A stretch of 64,000 bases of DNA. It comes from a phage. The first letter of the stretch is position 1; every line of letters begins with the position of its first letter. The notes below the pieces were generated by a model, which saw only the letters and a list, made by a program, of their open reading frames with translations, ran no database searches and was not told the DNA's origin. The DNA lies in the sequence record PZ445526.1. One strand, given 5' to 3'. Made by a program: the position numbers and the translations under genes. This document shows, in pieces, positions 44,432 through 45,260 of the stretch.

Positions 44432-44507
44432 TGGTCGAGGCAGTAGGGATCGAACCTACGACCCAGGACTTAGAAGGTCCTTGCTCTTCCTTCTGAGCTA
44501 TGCCTCG
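44432..44507 (-). tRNA. tRNA-Arg (UCU)
   Basis: Cloverleaf by hand: acceptor CGAGGCA/UGCCUCG, T-loop GUUCGAUCC, anticodon loop CUUCUAA, encoded CCA. Confidence 0.8.
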
Positions 44508-44511
44508 GATT

Positions 44512-44586
44512 TGGCGGACGTGATAGGATTCGAACCTATAACCAATCGCTTAACAGGCGATCGCTCTGCCATTGAGCTACACATCC
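44512..44586 (-). tRNA. tRNA-Asn (GUU)
   Basis: Acceptor GGAUGUG/CACGUCC (one G-U pair), D-loop with GG, anticodon stem AUCGC/GCGAU, loop CUGUUAA, T-loop UUCGAAU, encoded CCA; not part of the canonical eight T4 tRNAs as I recall them. Confidence 0.65.
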
Positions 44587-44590
44587 AAAT

Positions 44591-44677
44591 TGGTGGGGAG
44601 TGATGGAGTCGAACCACCCGAGTCGCAATGACAATGGATTTACAGTCCACACCGCTACCTCTACGGGATAACTCCCC
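44591..44677 (-). tRNA. tRNA-Tyr (GUA), long variable arm
   Basis: Acceptor GGGGAGU/ACUCCCC, anticodon loop CUGUAAA, 15-nt variable arm with its own stem, T-loop UUCGACU, encoded CCA; not part of the canonical T4 set as I recall it. Confidence 0.65.
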
Positions 44678-44687
44678 CAAATTAATT

Positions 44688-44762
44688 TGGTGGCCCTGGG
44701 TGGAATTGAACCACCATCTGGCGATTATGAGTCGCTTGCTTGAACCTTCCAGCTACAGGGCC
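44688..44762 (-). tRNA. tRNA-Ile (CAU; Met-type anticodon, likely lysidine-modified as in T4)
   Basis: Acceptor GGCCCUG/CAGGGCC, anticodon loop CUCAUAA, T-loop UUCAAUU, encoded CCA. Confidence 0.75.
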
Positions 44763-44763
44763 T

Positions 44764-44840
44764 TGGTGCTGATTGACGGAATCGAACCGCCGACCTTCTC
44801 ATTACAAGTGAGTTGCTCTACCTACTGAGCTAAATCAGCA
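44764..44840 (-). tRNA. tRNA-Thr (UGU)
   Basis: Acceptor UGCUGAU/AUCAGCA, anticodon loop CUUGUAA, T-loop UUCGAUU, encoded CCA. Confidence 0.75.
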
Positions 44841-44844
44841 AAAC

Positions 44845-44934
44845 TGGCGGAGGCGATAGGATTTGAACCTATGAGTCGCCGGAGCGACTGCCGGTTTTCA
44901 AGACCGGTGCATTAAACCACTCTGCCACGCCTCC
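44845..44934 (-). tRNA. tRNA-Ser (UGA), long variable arm
   Basis: Acceptor GGAGGCG/CGCCUCC, anticodon stem CCGGU/ACCGG with loop CUUGAAA, long variable arm, T-loop UUCAAAU, encoded CCA. Confidence 0.8.
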
Positions 44935-44936
44935 AG

Positions 44937-45010
44937 TCTCCGTGGCAGGATTTGAACCTACGACATTCTGCTCCCAAAGCAGACGCTCTACCAAACTGAG
45001 CTACACGGAG
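44937..45010 (-). tRNA. tRNA-Pro (UGG), CCA not encoded
   Basis: Acceptor CUCCGUG/CACGGAG, anticodon loop UUUGGGA, T-loop UUCAAAU; 3' end abuts tRNA-Ser (Pro-Ser dimer arrangement known from T4). Confidence 0.8.
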
Positions 45011-45020
45011 TAAATTAAAT

Positions 45021-45094
45021 TGGAGCGGATAATGAGAATCGAACTCACATCATCAGATTGGAAGTCTGAGGTAATGCCATTATACGATATCCGC
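45021..45094 (-). tRNA. tRNA-Gly (UCC)
   Basis: Acceptor GCGGAUA/UAUCCGC, anticodon loop CUUCCAA, T-loop UUCGAUU, encoded CCA. Confidence 0.8.
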
Positions 45095-45099
45095 AAATT

Positions 45100-45186
45100 T
45101 GGTGCGAGAAGTGGGACTCGAACCCACAAGGAAATCATTCCGCAGCATTTTAAGTGCTGTGCCTTTACCAATTTGACCATTCTCGC
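45100..45186 (-). tRNA. tRNA-Leu (UAA), long variable arm
   Basis: Sequence GCGAGAAUGGUCAAAUUGGUAAAGGCACAGCACUUAAAAUGCUGCGG...GGGUUCGAGUCCCACUUCUCGCACCA matches T4 tRNA-Leu as I recall it. Confidence 0.85.
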
Positions 45187-45187
45187 G

Positions 45188-45260
45188 CTGGGAATAAAGG
45201 ACTCGAACCTTTGCATCCTGGAATCAAAATCCAGTGCCTTACCAACTTGGCTAATTCCCA
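45188..45260 (-). tRNA. tRNA-Gln (UUG), CCA not fully encoded
   Basis: Acceptor UGGGAAU/AUUCCCA, anticodon loop UUUUGAU, T-loop UUCGAGU; directly abuts tRNA-Leu (Gln-Leu dimer arrangement). Confidence 0.8.

Follow-up and report, generated by a model that had tools for sequence, protein, structure and literature searches.

The tRNA regions of the phages T2L, RB1 and RB3 were sequenced by Brok-Volchanskaya et al. (2008), who found them to be without the homing endonuclease gene segB and to carry transfer RNA (tRNA) genes for Met(Ile), Tyr, Asn and Arg (PMC2330249). In T4 (NC_000866) the order is Gln-Leu-Gly-Pro-Ser-Thr-Ile-segB-Arg, then rnaD and rnaC, with no Tyr or Asn gene, and in T6 (AP018814; PMC13096335) it is Gln-Leu-Gly-Thr-Ile-Tyr-segB-Arg. 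The preferred cutting site of SegB was mapped to the tRNA-Asn gene, that of T2L being cut, and in crosses of T4 with T2L 99.6% of the progeny inherited segB, losing the Met(Ile)-Tyr-Asn-Arg genes of T2L (PMC2330249). Here we describe the tRNA array at positions 44432–45260 of a phage sequence of 64,000 nucleotides (nt) from record PZ445526.1, the whole of which we call the window. The array has tRNA-Tyr(GUA) and tRNA-Asn(GUU) genes between those for Ile and Arg. We consider it very probable that this is a segB-free Tequatrovirus tRNA operon of the RB3/T2 type, overwritten by segB in T4, in which Tyr and Asn are ordinary members and confer a dual benefit.

In the window ARAGORN found exactly ten tRNA genes, each of them within the array and on the minus strand. 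All ten passed the gathering score of the Rfam tRNA model (RF00005), 29 bits; nine scored 59–74 bits (E 1e-11 to 1e-15) and tRNA-Tyr only 30.2 bits. The two programs agree with the ten genes, coordinates, order and anticodons that a sequence-only reading had obtained by hand folding, and both call Tyr and Asn as tRNAs. In transcription order the genes are Gln, Leu, Gly, Pro, Ser, Thr, Ile, Tyr, Asn and Arg.

RB3 (NC_025419; EMBL AJ884578) and RB1 (AJ884577) have the same ten tRNAs with the same order and anticodons, are without segB, and have rnaD and rnaC downstream. The 829-nt array of the window is 97.8% identical to that of RB3, and the 166-nt segment spanning Tyr and Asn is 100% identical in RB3, RB5 and others. 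In RB3, rnaD directly follows tRNA-Arg, whereas in the window an open reading frame (ORF) of 116 amino acids (aa) separates the two; this ORF is also present in T2L and vB_Eco_BGP and absent from T4. The array of vB_Eco_BGP (OZ035849) is 98.6% identical to that of the window, with point differences only and the same architecture including the ORF after Arg, an architecture found in many further Tequatrovirus records. Over 20 kb, the surroundings of the array match hundreds of Tequatrovirus genomes, the best (vB_EcoM_G4498) at ~96.5% identity.

T2L (EMBL AJ880101) has the block Ile(CAU)-Tyr-Asn-Arg followed by an ORF termed 'trna.2', as in the window. We compared the window with the 12 T2L primers that lie outside the trna.1 ORF: nine are free of mismatches, two have a single mismatch each and #11 has three, and the matched primers cover Gln, Leu, Gly, Pro, Ile, Tyr, Asn, Arg and the 'trna.2' ORF. 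T2L differs in having the 'trna.1' ORF, whose primers are unmatched in the window, which holds tRNA-Thr there. Nine SegB sites were mapped in the T2L tRNA genes. The window array shows the segB-free RB3/T2L configuration throughout: it lies between homologues of T4 trna.2/trna.3 and rnaD/rnaC, has the full gene order, and keeps an intact SegB site in tRNA-Asn. The number of tRNA genes is seven in T6, eight in T4, nine in T2L, ten in RB3 and the window, and eleven in the IMG/VR contig L004 (2974787500_000001). In such close relatives the eleventh gene is a tRNA-His(GUG) between Asn and Arg, at 5248–5323 of L004; the anticodons of the Tyr, Asn and His tRNAs are all GUN.

T4 and the window share their flanking genes, homologues of T4 trna.2, trna.3, ipI, 57B and 57A, and the stretch from Gln through Thr plus the 5' part of Ile is 94–95% identical. 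Homology with T4 then ends at 44743, inside Ile, and resumes at 44063, at the start of rnaD; in T4, segB stands in place of the window's Tyr, Asn and 116-aa ORF. Homology with T6 extends further, ending at 44587 after Tyr and likewise resuming at 44063. The T6 tRNA-Tyr lies next to Ile(CAU), as in the window, and differs at 2 of 87 nt; segB and a T4-type Arg replace the window's Asn, Arg and ORF, and T6 is without Pro and Ser. By alignment, the window's Ile(CAU) and Arg(UCU) are different alleles from the T4 and T6 genes, and its tRNA-Arg is unrelated in sequence to that of T4. The sequence-only reading had matched the first seven tRNAs and Arg to T4. This holds for gene order, but not for the 3' part of Ile and the whole of Arg, which are other alleles. 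It had also placed small ORFs along with segB between Ile and Arg of T4; segB is indeed there, but no additional small ORFs are.

The preferred SegB site of PMC2330249 is found in the window, in the 3' part of tRNA-Asn (Table 1). In T2L this site differs from a weaker one in tRNA-Ser at G6, A16, G18, A26 and A27 (PMC2330249); the 27-mer in the window's Asn gene differs from the Ser 27-mer at exactly positions 6, 16, 18, 26 and 27, with the bases G, A, G, A and A. A tblastn search of the 64-kb window for a SegB homologue gave no significant match. On the simplest reading, phages with Tyr and Asn carry the recipient allele, and segB homing gave rise to the T4 state. T4 is then the derived exception and T6 an intermediate, with Tyr kept and Asn lost. 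The reference phage of the group would be its atypical member, part of its tRNA operon having been overwritten by a homing endonuclease, and mixed infection with T4 would cost the phage of the window, as a segB-free recipient, its Ile-Tyr-Asn-Arg genes.

Counts of these states were taken from the GenBank phage collection; an IMG/VR survey with a Trna.2-like protein gave 7 loci, too few for statistics. At least 80% of the Tyr+Asn pair was found in 396 phage records, with at least 99% identity in 251. The Gln-Thr core was found in 488 records and T4 segB in 126. Tyr and Asn had been proposed as additions to the canonical T4 set, and both genes are absent from T4; they are not unusual, however, but the majority state in Tequatrovirus. 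As a discovery the ten-tRNA layout carries little weight: the commonest in the genus, it is already known from the RefSeq annotation of RB3 and from the 2008 publication (PMC2330249).

ARAGORN labels the CAU tRNA as Met. Judged from its sequence it is Ile(CAU), a label that is right because the gene shows ~80% full-length identity to annotated tRNA-Ile genes of E. coli genomes, which are its best E. coli matches; it is closer to E. coli Ile than to Met. The pairs C4-G69 and C5-G68 in the acceptor stem are TilS determinants of tRNA-Ile2, and both are present in its acceptor stem, GGCCCUG/CAGGGCC. This tRNA is expected to read AUA after lysidine modification.

The tRNA-Asn gene is a canonical elongator by RF00005 (7-bp acceptor stem, 4-bp D stem, 5-bp anticodon stem, 7-nt anticodon loop, 5-bp T stem and GTTCGAATC-type loop; bp, base pairs), with a full-length match (1–71) at 74.1 bits against the threshold of 29. 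Its minimum free energy fold is the cloverleaf (z -2.0). Identity elements of bacterial tRNA-Asn are the anticodon GUU and the discriminator G73, and the gene has both, with an anticodon loop of CUGUUAA and a 3' end of ...GUCCG-CCA in which CCA is encoded. It has G39 where E. coli asnT has U39.

The tRNA-Tyr gene is of class II, with a T5-type variable arm, GUC-AUUGC-GAC (3-bp stem, 5-nt loop). It has GUA at 35–37, G1-C72, and A73 before an encoded CCA. In E. coli the identity elements of tRNA-Tyr are GUA, A73, the long variable arm and G1-C72; the gene has the bacterial features in its sequence and would be predicted to encode a substrate of tyrosyl-tRNA synthetase (TyrRS). GenBank records annotated with tRNAscan-SE call it tRNA-Tyr, and ARAGORN calls it Tyr GUA. 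Its one departure is that 4 nt rather than 2 connect the acceptor stem to the D stem, the remaining arms being standard; in homologues this connector is 4–5 nt.

Codon use was compared between the window (67 long ORFs, 16,393 codons) and a 50-kb segment of E. coli K-12 (41 ORFs, 14,727 codons). The most over-represented amino acids in the window were Tyr (1.81x), Lys (1.77x) and Asn (1.61x). Demand for Tyr was 46.2 per 1000 codons in the window vs 25.5 in the E. coli sample, and for Asn 60.2 vs 37.3, the largest absolute extra demands, about +21 and +23 codons per 1000. The top ten over-represented codons were AGA, AUA, UCA, AAU, GGA, ACA, ACU, UUA, UCU and UAU, with AUA at 4.5x, AAU at 3.4x and UAU at 2.6x. 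With codons assigned to 40 classes according to the E. coli tRNA that reads them, the ten phage tRNAs ranked 1–6, 8, 10, 11 and 13 in phage-over-host demand (Mann-Whitney p = 5e-6). The suggestion that Tyr and Asn fit phage codon usage is borne out, in these mechanically chosen ORFs, by the demand ranking and by the excess of AAU and UAU, and this supports an extension of the classical T4 result to the Tyr and Asn genes, as far as codon counts can indicate. Demand for Lys ranks 9th, yet the phage has no tRNA-Lys. Codon demand also does not explain the tRNA-His of the 11-tRNA relatives, because His codons are depleted in the window (0.67x vs E. coli).

The second suggestion, that the extra tRNAs may help to evade tRNA-targeting defences, gains support by analogy from experiments on T6 and T5-type homologues (PMC13096335, PMC11555353, PMC12673091, PMC12409363). 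Chihara et al. (2026) reported that the Septu system (PtuAB) cuts tRNA-Tyr in the variable arm, and that T6 is rescued by overexpression or by SegB-driven amplification of its own tRNA-Tyr; deletion of the tRNA-rich region makes T6 more sensitive to Septu, and T4, without tRNA-Tyr, cannot escape (PMC13096335). Azam et al. (2024) found that the T5/SP15 tRNA-Tyr neutralises retron-Eco7 (PMC11555353; structure paper PMC12673091), and the longer variable arm of the tRNA-Tyr of SP15, a T5-like phage, is needed for this inhibition (PMC11555353, PMC12673091). The T5 and window tRNA-Tyr genes are ~85% identical, with identical variable arms and D stems shifted alike (the SP15 sequence was not in this comparison). 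The T arm of T5 is like that of the window except for one extra T-stem pair, and the acceptor and anticodon stems differ. T5 and SP15 belong to another family (Demerecviridae) and carry these tRNAs among more than 20 others.

For PARIS, Belukhina et al. reported that a change at U39 abolishes cleavage of tRNA-Lys and that T5 tRNA-Asn contributes to rescue (PMC12409363). The window's tRNA-Asn reads U36-A-A-G39-C40-G41, vs U-A-A-U-C-C in E. coli asnT, so that G39 breaks the UAAU motif adjoining the cut site of AriB. T5 Asn and T5 Thr have G39 as well; the Asn genes of T5 and the window are otherwise not close relatives. The AriB cut lies between 40 and 41, and beyond position 39 the window's Asn also differs from asnT at 41 (G41 vs C41). 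The window's tRNA-Thr has G40 where thrU has C40, a change shared with T4 Thr. By homology or analogy, the window's Tyr and Asn may have anti-defence activity, and their presence may help to predict host range on strains with Septu, retron-Eco7 or PARIS.

We infer that the window copies of Tyr and Asn are expressed and functional. The operon would consist of ten functional tRNA genes, the small ORF, rnaD and rnaC; as in T4, a middle promoter probably drives synthesis of a single precursor, from which host enzymes release the mature tRNAs. T4 would be without Tyr and Asn because segB, cutting preferentially inside tRNA-Asn, replaced Ile(3' part)-Tyr-Asn-Arg with its own cassette. During infection the Tyr and Asn tRNAs would add to the host pool, with two mutually compatible benefits: meeting the extra demand of an AT-rich genome's Tyr- and Asn-rich proteome, and keeping translation going when tRNA-Tyr is cut (PtuAB of Septu, retron-Eco7) or tRNA-Asn is cut (AriB of PARIS).

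Several points weigh against this account. The ORFs for the codon comparison were chosen mechanically and set against a single 50-kb E. coli sample, and the comparison is unweighted by expression or tRNA abundance. The T4 tRNA region is dispensable on laboratory hosts (PMC2330249), so any benefit of the region would be conditional. The Tyr gene scores only 30.2 bits and has a non-standard connector. Septu Ec-B88 cleaves the T6 tRNA-Tyr at C48, and this tRNA is described as relatively unstable (PMC13096335); because it is cleaved, protection by Tyr may be dose-dependent. PARIS mainly targets tRNA-Lys and tRNA-Thr (PMC12409363), and since the phage is without tRNA-Lys, the Asn gene alone would not give escape.

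Two explanations that keep only one of these benefits, or put one first, deserve weight. It is possible, though on balance doubtful, that codon supply is the whole story, with Tyr and Asn, like the eight T4 tRNAs, merely speeding translation and any anti-defence effect incidental. The demand ranks of all ten tRNAs fit this, as do the size of the extra demand for Tyr and Asn and the anticodon loops, CUGUAAA (Tyr) and CUGUUAA (Asn), which are the same as in the host. Supply does not account for Lys, high in demand and without a phage tRNA, or for the His(GUG) gene added by relatives; nor for the greater Septu sensitivity of the T6 deletion mutant and rescue by overexpressed T6 tRNA-Tyr (PMC13096335). 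In addition, the phage tRNAs depart from those of the host right where the nucleases attack, in the variable arm of Tyr and at position 39 of Asn.

The converse is that Tyr and Asn, together with His in relatives, owe their retention mainly to replacing host tRNAs destroyed by abortive-infection nucleases, through nuclease resistance or high dose; this we likewise hold only as a tentative possibility. Besides the published rescues (PMC13096335, PMC11555353, PMC12673091, PMC12409363) and G39 in Asn, it draws on the occurrence of the same Tyr family, at 85–96% identity, in the unrelated Tequatrovirus, Vequintavirus and T5-like phages and on E. coli plasmids of 72–112 kb. It is countered by the cleavage of T6 tRNA-Tyr at C48 by Septu Ec-B88 (PMC13096335) and by the retron-Eco7 rescue, which depends on promoter and dose and is obtained with E. 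coli tRNA-Tyr too (PMC11555353). AriB targets Asn only secondarily (PMC12409363), and codon demand by itself already predicts both genes. Unlikely, in our estimation, is the stronger version in which Tyr and Asn, with His in the 11-tRNA relatives, would form a module for countering defences and not for codon usage; in it, a horizontally spread Tyr family would combine a PtuAB-resistant T5-type arm with the 4–5-nt link, and G39 in Asn would remove UAAU. Were the unusual D-arm geometry of Tyr itself an adaptation, blocking nuclease recognition while keeping TyrRS charging, tRNAs would have a structural route to immune evasion that is new.

We think it improbable that Tyr and Asn are neutral passengers whose presence only mirrors the spread of selfish segB, with tRNA T-arms as its landing sites. 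The preferred SegB site in Asn (the window 27-mer; PMC2330249) would suit such a history, as would the patchy layouts of 7 to 11 tRNAs over T6, T4, T2L, RB3/window and L004 and the dispensability of the region in the laboratory (PMC2330249). Mere passengers would not lead us to expect 251 records at least 99% identical over the Tyr+Asn pair, compensatory changes that maintain structure (below), a strong fit to codon demand, or the phenotypes measured in T6 (PMC13096335). The preferred reading remains that of a segB-free operon with both benefits.

The soundness of Tyr was judged by covariation. Loci with the same variable arm numbered 82 and gave 20 distinct sequences, from Tequatrovirus, Vequintavirus, T5-like phages and other viral contigs. 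A cloverleaf with a shifted D stem is 99.2% paired over these 20, with compensatory changes in six pairs (three in the acceptor stem, one in the D stem, two in the anticodon stem). The D stem starts two nt late: U8 and A9 are followed by 2–3 extra nt and then by CCGU, pairing with GCGG. In this register the D stem is 100% paired, and a CG-to-UA compensatory change backs the shift. Apart from the shift the D arm is canonical; its loop keeps the equivalents of A14, G18, G19 and A21, and the T loop, A73 and CCA are kept as well. In the standard register, which we rejected, D-stem pairing is only 63.8%, with one pair formed in none of the sequences. The tRNA-Sec model of Rfam gives Tyr 34.4 bits, short of its threshold of 47 bits. 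By inspection we rejected an acceptor stem of 8 or 9 bp like that of tRNA-Sec, since it sets U8 against C and would leave no T stem. The low Rfam score and the slightly better tRNA-Sec match arise because of the shifted D stem and 4–5-nt connector, not because of decay.

That Tyr is a decaying pseudogene or tRNA-like element, leaving nine working tRNAs, is highly improbable: its marginal Rfam score, the tRNA-Sec match, a single-sequence folding z-score of only -0.9 and the labels tRNA-OTHER or tRNA-Xle in some GenBank records are outweighed by the covariation, the anticodon GUA (not UCA), 100% conservation in RB3 and RB5, the T6 and SP15 homologues seen on northern blots and rescuing infection (PMC13096335, PMC11555353), and the anticodon dependence of the SP15 tRNA-Tyr rescue (PMC13096335, PMC11555353). 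The sequence pattern of Tyr marks it as a tRNA that is conserved and under constraint, and whose acceptor-to-D connector is unusual. This connector and the spread of the family over unrelated phages and E. coli plasmids are the only mildly unusual points of the array.

Homologues of Tyr with a 5-nt connector occur on contigs of ~100 to 172 kb (L014 ~6355–6443, L033 ~1292–1380 and L021 ~467–555). They keep the anticodon and the variable-arm pattern, and such genes are probably under-annotated because ARAGORN makes no call on them. On viral contigs, Tyr of this family is clustered with Thr, Asn or Arg, Ser and Met tRNAs. A phage-type tRNA-Tyr, 94% identical, was found in 255 of 5426 complete E. 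coli genomes (e.g. NZ_CP019027.1 104874–104960), in every case on plasmids of ~72–112 kb and never on a chromosome. These plasmids are probably phage-plasmids.

The candidate middle promoter upstream of Gln was read by eye, TATGCTTTA and TATTAT being set against what we take to be the T4 middle-promoter consensus. The stretch is 95% identical to T4, and we infer that it is a MotA-type middle promoter of the tRNA operon. A scan for sigma-70 promoters gave fewer matches than in shuffled controls and nothing usable upstream of Gln. In T4 a middle promoter lies just upstream of the tRNA cluster, and transcription stops after the species I RNA gene (PMC2330249). The 116-aa ORF, of a protein group of unknown function, sits inside the tRNA/stable-RNA unit, between tRNA-Arg and rnaD; T2L primers #24 and #25 match it with 1 and 0 mismatches. 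The rnaD and rnaC homologues are 93.6% identical to T4, and the latter contains a T-arm-like GGTTCAAGTCC. ORFs flanking the operon match homologues of T4 Trna.2 and Trna.3.

Table 1. Features of the tRNA/stable-RNA unit of the window, in transcription order.
Feature	Position	Strand	Basis and remarks
Candidate MotA-dependent middle promoter	45330–45356	-	TATGCTTTA at 45348–45356, 12-nt spacer, TATTAT at 45330–45335
tRNA-Gln (UUG)	45187–45260	-	ARAGORN; Rfam 67.4 bits; common to T4
tRNA-Leu (UAA)	45100–45186	-	ARAGORN; Rfam 59.3 bits
tRNA-Gly (UCC)	45021–45094	-	ARAGORN; Rfam 63.3 bits
tRNA-Pro (UGG), without encoded CCA	44936–45010	-	ARAGORN; Rfam 69.7 bits; 3' end read
tRNA-Ser (UGA), bears weaker SegB site	44845–44934	-	ARAGORN; Rfam 62.6 bits; 27-mer comparison
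tRNA-Thr (UGU)	44764–44839	-	ARAGORN; Rfam 72.9 bits
tRNA-Ile2 type (CAU)	44688–44762	-	ARAGORN (labelled Met); likeness to E. coli tRNA-Ile; T4/T6 allele alignment
tRNA-Tyr (GUA)	44591–44677	-	ARAGORN; Rfam 30.2 bits; alignments with T6, LL12, T5 and E. coli tyrU; covariation
tRNA-Asn (GUU)	44512–44586	-	ARAGORN; Rfam 74.1 bits; alignment with T5 and E. coli asnT
Preferred T4 SegB recognition/cleavage site, GGTTCGAATCCTATCACGTCCGCCAAA	44510–44536	-	3' part of tRNA-Asn plus 2 nt; sequence match to PMC2330249
tRNA-Arg (UCU), T2L/RB3-type allele	44432–44507	-	ARAGORN; Rfam 65.8 bits; allele alignment; T2L primers #7 and #13 match
116-aa ORF, equivalent of T2L 'trna.2'	44063–44413	-	ORF list; phrog_3355 (unknown function), E 1.5e-52; T2L primers #24, #25
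rnaD (species II stable RNA) homologue	43947–44066	-	Alignment with annotated T4 rnaD
rnaC (species I stable RNA) homologue	43802–43940	-	Alignment with annotated T4 rnaC
Terminator-like hairpin and T run, closing the tRNA/stable-RNA unit	43728–43751	-	Sequence scan

Two unusual tRNA-like genes were noted elsewhere. In a T4-like contig (L007; IMG/VR 2974739009_000001), in a cluster with otherwise only Met(CAU) and Arg(UCU) tRNAs, ARAGORN called a 94-nt tRNA at 5580–5673 with the anticodon UUA, which would be ochre-suppressor-like. Escherichia phage LL12 (L013) has a 99-nt tRNA-like gene at 1103–1201 with an ambiguous 4-base anticodon call; GenBank labels it tRNA-Lys and notes the isotype prediction as inconsistent.

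Four minus-strand ORFs flanking the operon (43082–43648, 46306–46548, 46607–46915 and 46976–47308) have MKT(Y/F)x(E/K)F(I/L)xEA at or near their N-termini. This resembles what we take to be the leader of T4 internal proteins such as ipI, and suggests that a variable set of internal-protein genes flanks the tRNA operon.

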